DNA from: Candidatus Coprovivens sp.
Lineage (GTDB): Bacteria; Bacillota_I; Bacilli_A; RF39; UBA660
Direction: 5' to 3'
Length of the DNA: 64,000 nucleotides
Assembly: GCA_051892935.1 (NCBI GenBank)
Contig: JBJFGS010000024.1
Location: 32,001 to 96,000 of the forward strand
Of this stretch, positions 5,866 through 52,280 are shown in pieces. The position numbers and the translations under genes were made by a program. The notes under the pieces are model-generated. The model was given only the letters and a program-made list of their open reading frames with translations. It was not told where the DNA came from and did not search any database. Within the stretch, counting starts at the first letter, position 1, and each line of letters opens with the position of its first letter.

Positions 5866-7953
5866 TTATATTTTTTTTATACTTTTATGATTTTTTAATA
5901 GTTTTTTTATTCCATAATTTTTAGCAAAAGCTACAGTGATGAAATCTCCTTTTACTTCTATTACTACTCCTCTGCCATATATCATATGCATTATTATGTC
6001 TCCTTCTGCAAATTCAACTTCACCTTCATTGTGATATAATTCCTCACGATTTATTTGTTCTTCTGGAATCATTTTTTCATTTTCTATTTCTAGTAAGTCA
6101 GGGTCTATTTCTTTGATGAATCTACTTGGAGCATTCATGATGTCTTTTCCGTATAGCATTCTTCTTTTAGCATTTGTAATATATAATCTTTCTTTAGCTC
6201 TTGTAATACCAACATAGCATAGTCTTCTTTCTTCTTCAAGTCCTCCTTCTTCACAAAATGAATTTTGATGTGGAAAAATACCATCTTCCATTCCAACTAG
6301 GAAAACAATAGAAAATTCAAGTCCTTTAGCACTATGCATTGTCATTAATGTTACAACATCCTCATCTTCTTGGTGTTCTGTTATATCGGCAATTAAACTT
6401 ATTTCTTCTAGGAAGTCACTTAGAGATACTGAGCCTGTTCTTTCTTCGAAAGACTTAGTAATTGATTTAAATTCTTCTAGTACTTCTAGTCTTCTTTCGC
6501 TTTCTAGTGTTTTTTCGTTTTCGTATTCTTCTTTCATTCCTGTTTCTTCTAGTATTAAATCAATTAATTCGGTTAGGGATAAGTTTTCACTTTCTTTTGT
6601 TAAATGAATTATCAACTCTTTAAATAGTTGTTCTTTTCCTTTGGAAATAACTTGAAAAATAGATGTATTTTGTTCTTTGGCTTCTTGGTCTAATTTGGAT
6701 ATAGTTGCTTCACCAATACCACGTTTAGGAACATTTATTACTCTTCTTAAGCTTATTTCATCATCATTGTTAAGGATTAATCTTAAATAGCAGATTAAGT
6801 CTTTTATTTCTTTTCTATTATAGAAGTAGTAACTACCTACTACTTTATAAGGCATGTTTGATTTTAGAAACATTTCTTCTACGACACGAGATTGAGCATT
6901 GGTTCGGTATAGTACTGCTATATCACTTTTTTTATATCCTTCATCTAGTAATCTTTTTATTTCATCTAGTACAAGTTGTATTTCATGTTTTCCATCATAT
7001 GCTCTTAAGTACTTTGTTTTTTTTCCTTCACCAACGCTACTCCATAGAGTTTTTTCTTTACGTTCTTTATTATTTTTTATTACTGAATTAGCGGCATCTA
7101 AGATGTATTTTGTAGAACGATAGTTTTCTTCTAAAGGAATTACTTTAGCATTTTGGTAGTCTTTTTCAAAGTTTAGGATATTACGGAAGTTAGCACCTCT
7201 GAACATATATATTGATTGATCAGGGTCTCCTACTATAAAGATGTTTTTGTATTTTTTGGCTAGTAGTTTACTTAGCTTATATTGTACTTCATTAGTATCT
7301 TGATATTCATCTATCAAAATATATTTGAATCTGTCTTGGTACATTTCAAGAACATCTTGGTGTTCTTGAAATAGCTTTACTGGTAATCTAAGTAAATCAT
7401 CAAAATCTACTGAGTTATTTTTCTTTAATATTTCAATGTATTCATAGTATACTTTTTCCGCTACTTTATCTTGAGGTGTATTATAGAATTTATTTATATC
7501 ATCATTGGATAACATGTCATTTTTTATACTACTAATTTTATTTCTAATGTAGGCTGGAGCTGTTAACTTAGGATCTAATCCTAAGTCTTTCATTATTCTT
7601 TTTATTAAAGAAATGACATCATCGCTGTCTATTATAGAAAAGTTTCTATCTAATCCTAGTAGTGGAGCATTTTCTCTAATAATTCTTACTCCTAATGAGT
7701 GGAATGTACCAACAAACGCATTATTATCTGGTACTATGCTAGATAGTCTATCTCTCATTTCTTTAGCTGCTTTATTAGTAAATGTAATTGCTAGAATATT
7801 ATATGATGGTATACCGTTTTCTATTAAATTAGCTATTCTTGTTGTAAGTACTCTTGTTTTACCTGAACCTGCACCAGCAATAACAAGACATGGTCCATCT
7901 TTGTGAAGCACAGCTTCTTTTTGTTTTTCATTAAGTCCGTTTAATAAGTTCAT
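5866..7953 (-). CDS. pcrA: ATP-dependent DNA helicase PcrA/UvrD
   Basis: AGAGSGKT, DEYQD, GDPDQSIY, NYRS, HSAKGLEF, EERRLCYVGITRA; lies near ligA. Confidence 0.97.
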   Translation of the reverse strand: MNLLNGLNEKQKEAVLHKDGPCLVIAGAGSGKTRVLTTRIANLIENGIPSYNILAITFTNKAAKEMRDRLSSIVPDNNAFVGTFHSLGVRIIRENAPLLGLDRNFSIIDSDDVISLIKRIMKDLGLDPKLTAPAYIRNKISSIKNDMLSNDDINKFYNTPQDKVAEKVYYEYIEILKKNNSVDFDDLLRLPVKLFQEHQDVLEMYQDRFKYILIDEYQDTNEVQYKLSKLLAKKYKNIFIVGDPDQSIYMFRGANFRNILNFEKDYQNAKVIPLEENYRSTKYILDAANSVIKNNKERKEKTLWSSVGEGKKTKYLRAYDGKHEIQLVLDEIKRLLDEGYKKSDIAVLYRTNAQSRVVEEMFLKSNMPYKVVGSYYFYNRKEIKDLICYLRLILNNDDEISLRRVINVPKRGIGEATISKLDQEAKEQNTSIFQVISKGKEQLFKELIIHLTKESENLSLTELIDLILEETGMKEEYENEKTLESERRLEVLEEFKSITKSFEERTGSVSLSDFLEEISLIADITEHQEDEDVVTLMTMHSAKGLEFSIVFLVGMEDGIFPHQNSFCEEGGLEEERRLCYVGITRAKERLYITNAKRRMLYGKDIMNAPSRFIKEIDPDLLEIENEKMIPEEQINREELYHNEGEVEFAEGDIIMHMIYGRGVVIEVKGDFITVAFAKNYGIKKLLKNHKSIKKI

Positions 7954-30049: not shown

Positions 30050-31336
30050 TTAGTTTCCTAAAGTTAATATTACTACTACAATACCCAAGCCGATTCCACA
30101 TATTAAAGCAACTGCTCCAAGTAGTAATGTTGTTGCTGCAAATCCGCCTGTTGTTTTTGATTCTTCTTCTACAATTAGTTTTATATCTTCATCAGTTATT
30201 TTTTTATTATTTAATAGTTCTGGATGTTCTTTTGGATTAATCGGATATTTCTTTTGAATTAAATCTAATTTTGTTGTTACTCTAACATTCAAACTTTGAG
30301 TTGCCATTGTTCTTTCAACTTTATTTGTTTTTTGTTCTTTATCTAGAGTTTCTTCTATTTTAGTTTGTAATTTAGCTATTTTTTCGAGATTTTTAATTAT
30401 TTTTGATTCTATAATTGGCGCTCTTTCAAGATTTGTATTGTTATAGATAATTCTACTTATTGCATCTTTATATAGTTTTATTGCATCATTTATAGCTTCA
30501 GTCATTTTTCTTATTTCAGTAAAATGCTGTTCAAATAATACTTCTAATAAAACATCTCTATTGATTAGTTTATTATTAAGCATATATTCATTATCCCCTA
30601 CTAGTTGATCTTTATCTATACTATTTGAAATAGATATTGGACTTAAGTAGGAATCAATCCATTCTGGTTTACCTTGTTCATTAATTTTACTGATTAGATA
30701 ATAATCTAATCCTCTATATTTACGACCTACAATATAGTCGAATAATATCATTCTTGCATATTTTTTTATTAATGCTTCTTTACTATTTTCACTTAATGGT
30801 ATTCCTTTTTGAAGTTCGATTTCTTTTGTTAGTGAATATGTCCCAAGATTGATTATATCGTTTATTTGAGCTTTATCAGTAATTGCATTTCCTTTTGATA
30901 CAGCTGGATATTGCAATACTTTGGTTATCCATGAAGCTTCCTCTTCATTTATTAATCTTTGATTAACATATTGAATTATGTGGTTAAGAACAGTTGTTGC
31001 AGAAATTCTTGTTTCAATATTTTTACTATAGTTTAATAGAGTAAAAACACCTACGTTATTTTCTTCTGTTACTATTCTTTTTGTTTCTTCGTGATCTACA
31101 TCAAATAATTCGGCAATATCACCTTTTATTATATCATAATCATCTATATTCATTAATTCAGGATTTAGACCATTTGATTTATAAACCCCTAATATACTTT
31201 TATTTAATTGAACTAGTTGAGAACCATCTTTAAAACTATTGATTACGTCAATAGTTATAGGTTCTTCCTTGCGGATACCATTATCAAGGGATACTATATA
31301 AAATTGTTCATTTGTATATACATCATTTTTATCCAT
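30050..31336 (-). CDS. hypothetical protein: degenerate HipA/PI3-4-kinase-like motif and C-terminal TM anchor
   Basis: MILFDYIVGRKYRGLDY resembles FD.xxGNxDRHxxN; hydrophobic C-terminal helix. Confidence 0.5.
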   Translation of the reverse strand: MDKNDVYTNEQFYIVSLDNGIRKEEPITIDVINSFKDGSQLVQLNKSILGVYKSNGLNPELMNIDDYDIIKGDIAELFDVDHEETKRIVTEENNVGVFTLLNYSKNIETRISATTVLNHIIQYVNQRLINEEEASWITKVLQYPAVSKGNAITDKAQINDIINLGTYSLTKEIELQKGIPLSENSKEALIKKYARMILFDYIVGRKYRGLDYYLISKINEQGKPEWIDSYLSPISISNSIDKDQLVGDNEYMLNNKLINRDVLLEVLFEQHFTEIRKMTEAINDAIKLYKDAISRIIYNNTNLERAPIIESKIIKNLEKIAKLQTKIEETLDKEQKTNKVERTMATQSLNVRVTTKLDLIQKKYPINPKEHPELLNNKKITDEDIKLIVEEESKTTGGFAATTLLLGAVALICGIGLGIVVVILTLGN

Positions 31337-31454
31337 AATAACTGCTCCTAGTCTATATAGCAATTATAACAGATATTTACAATAATGTGTATAAAAAATG
31401 GCTTTTTCTTTTGGATAAAAGAAAAAAGACCATAAAGGTCTGTTAATTTACATA

Positions 31455-31530
31455 TGGTGCCGAGGGACTGAGTCAAACAAGTCTCCTTACACAAACAAAG
31501 TGTACGTTCTAACGTTACAACTACCTCGGC
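31455..31530 (-). tRNA. atypical tRNA-like RNA (Thr-like acceptor stem, nominal anticodon UGU)
   Basis: 76 nt; perfect GCCGAGG/CCTCGGC acceptor stem plus A-CCA; TACAC/GTGTA anticodon stem; non-canonical D- and T-loops. Confidence 0.7.
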
Positions 31531-31689
31531 ATTAATATTGAACTTTTCAGTACATTATTATAATAGCACATAATTATTTAAATATACAAATTTTAGTGTT
31601 TTACTTTACATTTTTATTACGTTTAACTTATACTTCATTTCGATAAATTAAAATGTTATAATATATTTAGAATAAAGGAGTTGTATTAT

Positions 31690-32715
31690 ATGAAAGCAGT
31701 AGCTATTAAATCTTTAAAGAATCTAGAAGTTGTCGAAATACCAACACCAAGAGTTAAAAATGGTAGTGTTGTTGTAGAAGTCAAAAAAGCAGGTATTTGT
31801 GGTTCTGATATTCATTATTGGGATATGGGATTACCTGAAAATTTAGTTATGGGTCACGAATTTTGTGGAATCGTCACTAATCCTGGTAGTAGAACTGATT
31901 TAAAAATTGGTGATAGAGTCACGGCTTTACCTATTTCGCCTTGTGGAAAGTGTCCAGCATGTAAATCTAATAATCATCAATATTGTCCTCATACTTGGGA
32001 TGAGGCCGTAGGATTATCATTAACTAATCCTGGAGCTTATGCAGAAATGACTACTGTAAGACCTGATTTGGTTGTAAAGGTTCCTAGTAATATTACTGAT
32101 GCGGAAGTTGCTATGGTCGAACCAACTGCAGTTGCATTACATGCTGTTAATTTAGTTGATATTAAAGTTGGTAGTAAAGTATTAGTTATAGGCGCAGGTA
32201 TTATTGGTGATTTATGTGCTTTATTTGCTAAAATGAATGGCGCTTCTTATGTAGCAATTTCTGAAACTAATGTAAAACGTGGTAAAAAAGCTGTTTCTTT
32301 GAAATGTGCTGATGAGTATTTTAATGCCAAAGATAAAAATTTTATGGTAGATGTAAAAAGAGAATGTCCTTACGGATATGATGTTGTTATTGATTGCTCT
32401 GGTAATAGTGGCGCTGTTACTTCTGCATTATTATGTGTTAAGCCAAATGGTTCTGTAGTTTTGGTTGGCGTTTCGACTTCAAATATTAGCATTCCTTCTT
32501 CATTTATTGTTATGAAAGAATTAAAAGTATTTGGAGCTATCGGTTATACTTATGATGAATTTGTAAATTGTATTAAATTAATGGCGGACAGACAAATAGA
32601 TACTTTAAAGTTTGTTGATGATATAGTTGGTCTTCATGATGTTCAAAATGCTTTTGAAAGATTAACAAGTGGAGATGATAACGCTATAAAAATACTAATT
32701 GATCCTAAGAAATAA
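31690..32715 (+). CDS. Zn-dependent medium-chain alcohol/polyol dehydrogenase
   Basis: GICGSD, GHE, CGKCPAC..C and GAGIIG motifs; ATG 31690 behind AAGGAG. Confidence 0.93.
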   Translation: MKAVAIKSLKNLEVVEIPTPRVKNGSVVVEVKKAGICGSDIHYWDMGLPENLVMGHEFCGIVTNPGSRTDLKIGDRVTALPISPCGKCPACKSNNHQYCPHTWDEAVGLSLTNPGAYAEMTTVRPDLVVKVPSNITDAEVAMVEPTAVALHAVNLVDIKVGSKVLVIGAGIIGDLCALFAKMNGASYVAISETNVKRGKKAVSLKCADEYFNAKDKNFMVDVKRECPYGYDVVIDCSGNSGAVTSALLCVKPNGSVVLVGVSTSNISIPSSFIVMKELKVFGAIGYTYDEFVNCIKLMADRQIDTLKFVDDIVGLHDVQNAFERLTSGDDNAIKILIDPKK

Positions 32716-38953: not shown

Positions 38954-39029
38954 TGGTGCCGGCAAGAGGAATCGAACCCCCAACCTTCTGATTACGATTC
39001 AGCTGCTCTACCAATTGAGCTATGTCGGC
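38954..39029 (-). tRNA. tRNA-Thr (CGT)
   Basis: 76-nt cloverleaf GCCGACATAGCTCAATTGGTAGAGC..AT-CGT-AA..GGTTCGATTCC..ACCA. Confidence 0.93.
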
Positions 39030-42215: not shown

Positions 42216-42572
42216 TGGTGGAGTAGAGGAGAATCGAACTCCTGTCCAAGATACTCTGCAATACAACGTCTACAAGTTTAGTTAGATTTTTAATTTCATT
42301 AAGCGGCCGGCTATAACGTACCTACCATCTTAACTATTCTAAGTAATATTCATTACTATATCTTAGAAACTATAGTAATATACTCTGTATGTATGAACCC
42401 TTATATTAATCTACAGATAAAACTAATTAAGAGTGCTCCCAAACCTTATATTAGGCAAAAACAGGAGCGAAACTATATGAAGTTTCGTCATTTAATTTTA
42501 AGTTTGAATTTTAGGTATTCCTACCACTTGCAGTCATACTCAGATATACCCTGTCGAAACCAAGTCTACCCC
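42216..42572 (-). ncRNA. ssrA: tmRNA; predicted tag (A)DETSYSFAPVFA
   Basis: GGGGTAG/CTACTCC-A-CCA acceptor stem with G3-U; GGTTTCGAC near the 5' end; GTTCGATTC T-loop; tag ORF 42489-42451. Confidence 0.95.
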
Positions 42573-51974: not shown

Positions 51975-52195
51975 ATAAAAAAAATCTAAAACCAAGGGAC
52001 GAAATTATATTCCGCGGTACCACCCTAATTCTAGAAATCTAGCTCTTTATTATAGATATAACGCTTCTATATGCGGTTCTAACTCCAACGATGAATTTCA
52101 TTATATTATTTATCTATAAGTGCTTTCAGCCGCTGACACTTAATCTCTAAATGAAGAACTTAATATAATTACTTGGTTCGTCTTCAACGTTTTTC
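51975..52195 (-). promoter_or_regulatory. Phe T-box riboswitch leader
   Basis: AGGGTGGTACCGCG T-box at 52026-52013; AGAGA and GCTGAA stem I motifs; specifier GAAA-TTC (Phe) at 52095-52093. Confidence 0.9.
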
Positions 52196-52280
52196 TGCTT
52201 TGTATTTTAACACAATTGTTTTATTTATGCAAATAAAACATTCTATTTTGCAACTTAAATAACAAATAACTAAAGTTTAG

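Follow-up and report, generated by a model that had tools for sequence, protein, structure and literature searches.

What is a gene with the shape of a tRNA doing at a place where standard tRNA finders report none? The question is raised by a locus on a stretch of 64,000 nucleotides (nt), here called the window, from Candidatus Coprovivens sp., which belongs to an uncultured gut genus of Bacilli (assembly GCA_051892935.1, genome G000 of our set; contig JBJFGS010000024.1, positions 32,001 to 96,000). At 31455..31530 of the window, on the minus strand, lies a 76-nt tRNA-Thr-like RNA with the anticodon UGU at positions 34-36 and an encoded ACCA end, recognized from its sequence, by ARAGORN at a threshold of 90% and by a covariance model (R1). 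The minus-strand sequence given in the original prediction, which had proposed a Thr-chargeable tRNA with a non-ribosomal or regulatory role, matches window 31530..31455 exactly. We consider it almost certain that the locus is a real, selected RNA gene derived from tRNA-Thr that annotation has overlooked.

Conservation, detection and predicted transcription unit

A DNA search of 41 relatives recovered the RNA stretch from 15 further genomes of the genus. These copies and that of G000 form a 16-copy alignment on which R1 was built, and a 17th copy was recovered by searching with the model. All 16 aligned copies are exactly 76 nt long, without insertions or deletions, and column identity averages 94%. 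Identity between pairs of copies averages 0.91 over the core, 0.61 over the 60 nt on its upstream side, where the promoter lies, and 0.45 over the 60 nt on its downstream side. When the alignment is read as a cloverleaf whose T stem has a bulge, 98.9% of its cells are paired (100% in the acceptor stem and 98.6% in the anticodon stem), and U33 and the ACCA end are invariant. Three base pairs have changed on both sides: 7:66 is G-C in six distinct rows and A-U in eight, 29:41 is C-G in seven rows and U-A in seven, and 30:40 is A-U in seven, G-C in six and G-U in one. Double-change cells number 19, compared with 6.8 ± 3.1 in shuffled alignments (none of 500 reaches 19) and 0-1 in slid controls. 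Almost nothing changes in the D and T regions, while the anticodon stem drifts. The covariation check across relatives that the original prediction called for thus came out in its favour, as did its other computational checks: the RNA is conserved with compensatory changes and has not diverged at random.

At default settings ARAGORN makes no call on the 76-nt RNA, and in the window it reports only tRNA-Cys, tRNA-Thr(CGU) and transfer-messenger RNA (tmRNA). Rfam at its gathering thresholds likewise finds only tRNA-Cys and tRNA-Thr(CGU) as tRNAs of the window. The RNA is absent from the 32 matches in the genome to the general tRNA model RF00005 (gathering threshold 29 bits), and that model has no match in the surrounding 401-nt region even at E≤10; Rfam at such permissive thresholds gave nothing but noise. 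With the ARAGORN threshold lowered to 90% (-ps90), tRNA-Thr(tgt) of 76 nt is called at exactly 31455..31530, as one of 17 extra calls (16 besides this RNA) in the 1.81-Mb genome. The minimum free energy z-score of the RNA as a single sequence is -1.79. Since a single sequence proves little, the case is carried by conservation and covariation across genomes. Functional tRNA paralogues can evidently sit just under the ARAGORN and Rfam tRNA thresholds and so be omitted from annotation.

The gene appears to be transcribed as a separate unit. An extended -10 element, TGCTATTAT, lies at 31560..31568 on the minus strand (TATTAT at 31565-31560, TG at 31568-31567), and a weak -35-like hexamer, TTGTAT, lies at 31584..31589 with a spacer of 18 nt. 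The promoter noted earlier, TTGTAT-18-TATTAT with a TG extension, is thus present, but its -35 part is weak and it is essentially an extended -10 promoter; it is missing from the output of our consensus scan because the -35 hexamer agrees with TTGACA at only three of six positions. The motif TGnTA[T/A][A/C/T]AT stands upstream of the RNA in 16 of the 17 copies, at a distance from G1 of 28-34 nt in 14 copies, 19 nt in G015 and 12 nt in G011. The predicted 5′ leader (31531..31553) contains a small hairpin, GUACUU..AAGUAC in most relatives and imperfect in G000, which is predicted in 14 of the 17 copies and takes a GUAC-to-UGC variant form in G002. The leader is presumably removed by RNase P; the transcription start, this cleavage and the 3′ trimming are all predicted steps. 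Downstream, the consensus scan lists an intrinsic terminator at 31417..31441 on the minus strand, AGACC-UUUAU-GGUCU (stem 31441-31427) followed by UUUUUUCUUUU, which is the agacc/ggtct hairpin with a T run already recognized in the original prediction. Judged from folds read by eye, 16 of the 17 copies have a hairpin with a T run after the CCA.

Structure, descent and threonine identity

The RNA combines intact outer stems with an altered elbow. Its acceptor stem has 7 bp (GCCGAGG/CCUCGGC), followed by the discriminator A73 and an encoded CCA, and its anticodon stem of 5 bp (UACAC/GUGUA) closes a 7-nt loop, UUUGUUU, with U at position 37. The D stem has 3 bp, and the 8-nt D loop, UAACGUUA, contains G18 U19 in place of GG. 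The T arm reads GACUUG-UUUGACU-CAGUC, with a T loop, UUUGACU, that provides U54, U55, U56, G57 and A58. In the aligned copies, 63% of T-stem cells pair in the standard register and 100% pair if one U is bulged.

Where a canonical tRNA has A14, G18-G19, U54-U55-C56 and a purine at position 37, this RNA has U14, G18-U19, U54-U55-U56 and mostly U37. The G19-C56 elbow pair is replaced by U19/U56, and the regular 13-22 pair is gone. G13/G22, U32, U37, U38 and the extra U in the T stem set the RNA apart from canonical tRNA-Thr. Fifteen of the 16 aligned copies carry U37, and A37 occurs in two copies, those of G024 and G041. A9, G10-C25 with G45, G26/A44, G18/U55, U54/A58 and G53-C61 are retained, as is A15 with U48 in most copies; all of these are standard tertiary partners in tRNA. 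The earlier account of lost translation determinants needs a small correction: A14, G19-C56, the purine at 37 and a regular T stem are lost, while G18, U54, U55 and A58 are kept.

Scores with R1 separate the RNA clearly from its nearest kin. The G000 copy scores 105.6 bits and the copies in 16 other genomes of the genus 94-109 bits; the next-best matches in the 27 genomes of the genus are canonical tRNA-Thr at no more than 56.5 bits, the tRNA-Thr(UGU) of G000 scoring 50.4. Across 151 genomes of the order, covering 87 genera, nothing besides G000 exceeds 60 bits, and the ten best other matches, which were inspected, are ordinary 74-nt tRNA-Thr(GGU). No homologue above 61 bits was found in the 150 other genomes of the order sample or in five genomes with Fem3-like genes (described below). 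Canonical tRNA-Thr species are 57-74% identical to the RNA, and the closest is the family's 74-nt GGU type, with which the RNA shares the T stem GACUG/CAGUC apart from its extra U. Judged by its sequence, the RNA is a diverged tRNA-Thr paralogue. As for a phage or mobile origin, a blastn search of 50,697 phage records gave no match to it. An 18-nt motif of its D arm in two viral contigs was dismissed as chance, as R1 gives these contigs 13 bits, no tRNA is present and the surrounding sequence looks by eye like repetitive coding sequence.

In Escherichia coli, the key elements of threonine identity are G1-C72, C2-G71, G35 and U36. The RNA shares the acceptor pairs G1-C72, C2-G71, C3-G70, G4-C69 and A5-U68, and A73, with the tRNA-Thr(UGU) and tRNA-Thr(CGU) of its own genome, and its ACCA end with all three canonical tRNA-Thr species. 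Across the aligned copies U33, G35, U36 and U38 are invariant; 14 copies have U34 and two have C34, and both of the resulting anticodons are threonine anticodons. With pairs 1-5, A73, G35 and U36 all as in the genome's tRNA-Thr, the elements expected for threonine identity, which resides in acceptor-stem pairs and anticodon nucleotides according to a published review (PMC9976931), are retained, and the RNA can probably be charged with threonine, as its sequence suggests.

The genome carries canonical tRNA-Thr with the anticodons UGU, GGU and CGU and a single thrS gene. The presence of a canonical tRNA-Thr(UGU), a point left to be checked by the original prediction, means that the RNA is not the only decoder of ACA, and it is therefore a redundant fourth Thr-type species. 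The canonical tRNA-Thr(CGU) lies in the window itself, at 38954..39029 on the same (minus) strand, 7.4 kb upstream of the RNA. In G011 a canonical tRNA with the anticodon loop CUCGUAA stands directly upstream of the tRNA-like gene. The tRNA-Thr(GGU) of G000 has the T stem AUAAG/CUUAU, where other genera and some members of the genus have GACUG/CAGUC.

Further RNA features were noted along the way. A second odd tRNA-like sequence lies outside the window at C13:15946-16019 of G000, on the minus strand (L177:1447-1520). RF00005 matches it at 44.5 bits and ARAGORN labels it 'tRNA-???' with a 2-nt anticodon; it has canonical D and T arms, a malformed anticodon arm and no CCA. Set within an open reading frame (ORF) of 309 amino acids (aa), it comes closest to tRNA-Val and tRNA-Ala, and no other genome of the genus was found to have it. 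It has the look of a genuine tRNA relic, which may mark an old integration site. Within the window, the tmRNA gene occupies 42216-42572 on the minus strand and encodes the tag peptide DETSYSFAPVFA. A match to RF03531, a Clostridioides difficile small RNA described within a helicase gene, lies at 6165-6264 on the minus strand (68 bits; gathering threshold 65.2).

FemAB-type transferases and the history of the RNA in the genus

Transferases that could use a charged tRNA outside translation were sought in the G000 assembly, which is 92% complete. It contains three intact genes of the FemAB family (PF02388), about 24-26% identical to one another: Fem1 (C11:28796-30022), Fem2 (C36:13092-14345) and Fem3 (C31:10790-12031). 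The solved structures closest to Fem3 are Staphylococcus aureus FmhB (6snr, E=1.3e-26) and FemA (1lrz), and PF13480 matches Fem1 and Fem2 only. Fem-, MurM- or MprF-type transferases had been named earlier as something to look for; the Fem genes were found, but neither an MprF C-domain nor a cyclodipeptide synthase (CDPS) was matched in this assembly. A search for Lant_dehydr_N (LanB-N) also gave no match, a result that is uninformative, as the control matched in 0 of 14 control genomes. The possibility of other sub-threshold tRNA-like genes for Fem1 or Fem2 was judged on five of the 16 further calls made by ARAGORN at 90%. These five were rejected as false positives: they are AT-rich and lack both a CCA and a G+C-rich acceptor stem, and four lie inside long ORFs. 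Fem1 and the canonical tRNA-Thr(GGU) gene share a strand and are 2.3 kb apart (C11:28796-32425).

The nearest downstream neighbour of the RNA served as a landmark for the locus in other genomes. This gene (30050..31336, minus strand) has its own extended -10 promoter and encodes a 428-aa protein of no Pfam family, with a coiled-coil-like middle and a C-terminal membrane helix. Searches of the protein matched no family at E≤0.001 and gave only weak noise at E≤5, and a HipA-like C-terminal domain suggested by a language-model search (rank 25, score 0.89) was too weak a lead to use. The gene is found in 24 of the 27 genomes of the genus. At 15 of the 17 RNA loci it follows the RNA at a distance of no more than about 250 nt, and in G019 at about 1 kb; it is absent from the locus examined for G022.

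R1 finds the RNA in 17 of the 27 genomes of the genus, leaving ten without a match. In G007, G016 and G021 the locus is probably unassembled, because the 428-aa gene is missing too, and in G013 the contig stops about 50 nt short of the expected position of the RNA, judged from the near-identical arrangement in G019. In G005, G008, G010, G012, G014 and G042, by contrast, the absence is genuine: the downstream gene and the upstream intergenic region are intact and the RNA is gone. The corrected count is therefore 17 genomes with the RNA, six truly without it and four undetermined. The 428-aa gene is kept at 58-62% identity in all six RNA-less genomes; because it persists where the RNA is lost, it was rejected as a dependent partner of the RNA and is probably not part of the mechanism.

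Orthologues of Fem1 and Fem2 occur in RNA-bearing and RNA-less genomes alike, with 67-78% identity in the RNA-less clade where they were found. Fem3 is distributed differently. Fem3-type genes with 68-87% identity are present in 16 of the 17 RNA-bearing genomes and also in G013, G016 and G021; the exception is the RNA-bearing G003, an assembly of 210 contigs in which neither Fem1 nor Fem3 was matched. None of the six RNA-less genomes has a Fem3-type gene, the best match there in the genome search being 47-50% identical. Stop codons that seemed to fall inside several Fem3 matches appear to lie in a 13-residue extension before the likely start at M14, a start that is supported by clean ORFs of 400-402 aa in G009 and G017.

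What the six RNA-less genomes have instead is a protein that we call Fem4, which, once extracted, is 44-48% identical to Fem3. In a protein tree the six Fem4 sequences form a long-stemmed clade of their own (100/100), outside the clade that unites the Fem3 proteins of the genus with Fem3-like proteins of other metagenome-assembled genomes (93/94). This placement points to replacement by a different paralogue or to extreme divergence. Fem4 lies directly upstream of Fem1 in G005, G010 and G012. The two genes form an apparent two-gene operon there (G005:C3:22036-24517, L170; G010:C10:35839-38356, L169; G012:C17:6384-8865, L171), and at these loci a conserved 320-aa gene of no known function lies upstream of Fem4.

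Four genomes from as many other genera served to root an rpoB tree, which was built without G013, whose row was partial and of poor quality, and without G006, G010, G011 and G042, which gave no rpoB match. The genus is monophyletic in this tree (100/100), and the four RNA-less genomes included in it form one clade (99/97). This clade is nested in a clade of 12 genomes (100/97) whose other eight members all bear the RNA. The fewest changes that explain the pattern are two, a gain of the RNA at the base of the genus and a single loss. The loss of the RNA and the swap of Fem3 for Fem4 map to the same branch, and no other clade shows such a swap. Since this is a single event and the relatives are not independent, the coincidence is suggestive rather than statistical.

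Proposed function and competing explanations

By analogy with the staphylococci, the locus may encode a non-proteinogenic tRNA-Thr that donates its amino acid to a Fem transferase, probably Fem3, for the peptidoglycan bridge, a reading to which we give about an even chance. It draws on that analogy and on the one coincident loss described above. The RNA would be transcribed alone from its extended -10 promoter and trimmed to a 76-nt tRNA-shaped molecule with an encoded CCA. The single threonyl-tRNA synthetase (ThrRS) would charge it with threonine, a step proposed because the acceptor-stem and G35/U36 identity elements of canonical tRNA-Thr are kept. The altered elbow (U14, U19, U56), the bulged T stem and U37, which leaves no place for the threonylcarbamoyl modification of A37 (t6A37), would then exclude it from EF-Tu and ribosome traffic. 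One of the three FemAB-type peptidyltransferases, most likely Fem3, would use the resulting Thr-tRNA and add L-Thr to the interpeptide bridge of peptidoglycan.

Dedicated non-proteogenic cell-wall tRNAs have been something of a textbook curiosity. A 2020 study of S. aureus (PMC7826273) describes three non-proteogenic (NP) tRNA-Gly isoacceptors, NP1-NP3, which bind EF-Tu-GTP and ribosomes poorly and are preferred by FmhB (4.5-fold), FemA and FemB. Position 19 is dihydrouridine in these tRNAs, their T-loop triplet is altered, and they belong to a lineage-specific cluster; by the account given there, such tRNAs had so far been detected only in S. aureus and Staphylococcus epidermidis (PMC7826273). 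Our literature search returned no non-proteinogenic tRNA-Thr, and the reports of non-proteogenic tRNAs that it found were all staphylococcal. The RNA of Candidatus Coprovivens resembles the NP tRNA-Gly in being an extra, lineage-restricted paralogue beside a canonical set, in keeping its synthetase identity, in sharing a genome with Fem transferases (three here), and in having the D-loop GG replaced (a U-derived base at 19 there, U19 here) and the T loop altered. It differs in being a tRNA-Thr rather than a tRNA-Gly, in belonging to an uncultured genus of gut Bacilli and in being a single gene with its own promoter. Where the NP tRNA-Gly are described as having weak A-U pairs at 49-65 and 51-63, it has a bulged U in the T stem and a pyrimidine at 37. 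The staphylococcal tRNAs are known from biochemistry, whereas this one is known from sequence alone.

Threonine would not be new to this role. In work by Strominger and Soll in the late 1960s, L-threonine was reportedly incorporated into the interpeptide bridges of Micrococcus roseus in a tRNA-dependent manner, a precedent for Thr-tRNA as the donor of a bridge residue; to our knowledge, no dedicated tRNA-Thr was described in that work. A tRNA-derived shape at work outside decoding is also known from the pseudo-tRNA 'tRNA-Other' of Bacillus cereus. The thrS operator of E. coli offers another likeness, as it mimics the anticodon arm of tRNA-Thr (PMC9976931); that operator has no acceptor arm, unlike the present RNA with its perfect acceptor arm and CCA.

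Several observations weigh against a dedicated donor of threonine to Fem3. The tRNA-like gene adjoins no Fem gene, and the link to Fem3 amounts to one evolutionary event, which in a single clade could be coincidental. G192 and G193, which are not among the 27, have Fem3-type genes of 61-62% identity and no RNA at the 90-bit level; both are small assemblies, and the pattern is compatible with a Fem3 that predates the RNA or with incomplete assemblies. The only contig of the RNA library on the window (238 nt, from one metatranscriptome run) lies at 31867-32104, on the neighbouring dehydrogenase gene. L-Thr in the bridge of this uncultured genus is itself a prediction. The first three pairs of the T stem set the affinity of a tRNA for EF-Tu, and in the bulged register these are G-C, A-U and C-G, the same as in the canonical tRNA-Thr(GGU) of related genera, so that weak binding of EF-Tu is not evident from these pairs alone. 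Lastly, RNAalifold prefers a long-range helix outside the cloverleaf, in which the D region (9-18) pairs with the T region (52-60). Because these regions hardly vary, neither this helix nor the D and T arms of the cloverleaf have compensatory support. An L-shaped tRNA fold is nevertheless favoured on the sequence, because many of the nucleotides that make tertiary contacts in tRNA are kept.

The strongest of the competing explanations, though still an unlikely one, is a regulatory or decoy tRNA mimic that donates no amino acid and acts by titrating ThrRS, by engaging a T-box or another tRNA sensor, or as a nuclease decoy. It would account for the conservation of ThrRS-type identity elements; a promoter of its own would allow separate regulation, and thrS is T-box controlled in G000. 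The thrS T-box specifier, however, is ACU, which mismatches U34 or C34 of the RNA, and none of the eight other leaders read has an ACA or ACG specifier (a tenth, weak match, L034, fell below the cut-off and was left out). With no matching specifier among these leaders the RNA is not an obvious T-box ligand. T-box stem I, moreover, stacks on the G19-C56 elbow of a tRNA, which is the very part altered here. A perfect 7-bp acceptor stem with ACCA suits an amino-acid acceptor and exceeds what a mimic of the anticodon arm needs, and no nuclease or defence gene is linked to the RNA. Among the ten T-box matches of the genome, whose specifiers were read as Asp, Gly, Tyr, Ser, Ala, Thr and others, one leader lies in the window at 51992-52196 on the minus strand (96.6 bits; specifier region GAA-AUU-C, probably Ile-type).

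It is improbable, and somewhat more so, that the RNA is a working if odd translational tRNA-Thr(UGU), a fourth isoacceptor still handled by EF-Tu and the ribosome, perhaps in certain conditions. Such a tRNA would be expected to have the 7-nt anticodon loop, U33, the threonine anticodons UGU or CGU and the encoded CCA that are seen in the 16 aligned copies; its first three T-stem pairs in the bulged register are those of the relatives' canonical tRNA-Thr(GGU), and G024 and G041 do have A37. On the other hand, the canonical UGU, CGU and GGU species are already present, A14 and G19-C56 are lost, the T stem needs a bulge and RF00005 fails to match the RNA at E≤10. Decoders of ANN codons are expected to carry t6A37, which cannot form on the U37 of 15 of the 16 copies. 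One clade has also lost the gene cleanly, with no visible replacement. The RNA resembles canonical tRNA-Thr in its 76-nt length, 5-bp anticodon stem and G35/U36 and departs from it in U14, U19, U56, G13/G22, the extra T-stem U and the failure to match RF00005.

There is only a slight chance that threonine is donated to an aminoacyl-tRNA-dependent enzyme outside the Fem family, such as a peptide, lipid or natural-product transferase or the 428-aa membrane protein encoded next door. The Fem link is circumstantial, and the 428-aa gene, of no known family, is syntenic at 16 of the 17 loci; yet that gene stays at 58-62% identity in the six genomes that lack the RNA and has its own promoter behind a terminator, and neither an MprF C-domain nor a CDPS was found in the assembly. 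A pseudogene of tRNA-Thr that owes its conservation solely to the close kinship of the genomes is scarcely credible: the default tRNA finders reject the RNA and its z-score is only -1.79, but the flanks stand at 45-61% identity against 91% in the core, compensatory double changes preserve three pairs, the promoter and terminator are kept in 16 of the 17 copies, and the genome's real tRNA-like relic (C13:15946-16019) is absent from the other genomes of the genus, unlike this RNA.

It is possible, though we put it at somewhat below an even chance, that the dedicated tRNA-Thr proposed here represents a second, independent invention of a cell-wall-only tRNA, one that co-evolves with a single FemAB paralogue. 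If the proposal is true, it would be the first dedicated non-proteinogenic tRNA outside the tRNA-Gly of staphylococci, and the solution would have evolved more than once, perhaps recurring whenever bridge synthesis and translation compete for an aminoacyl-tRNA. Other genomes would then conceal further tRNAs of this kind under the detection thresholds. The RNA would also offer a natural experiment on the features that exclude a tRNA from EF-Tu and the ribosome while keeping it available to its synthetase and a Fem enzyme, and L-Thr would be expected in the peptidoglycan bridge of organisms that have never been cultured.

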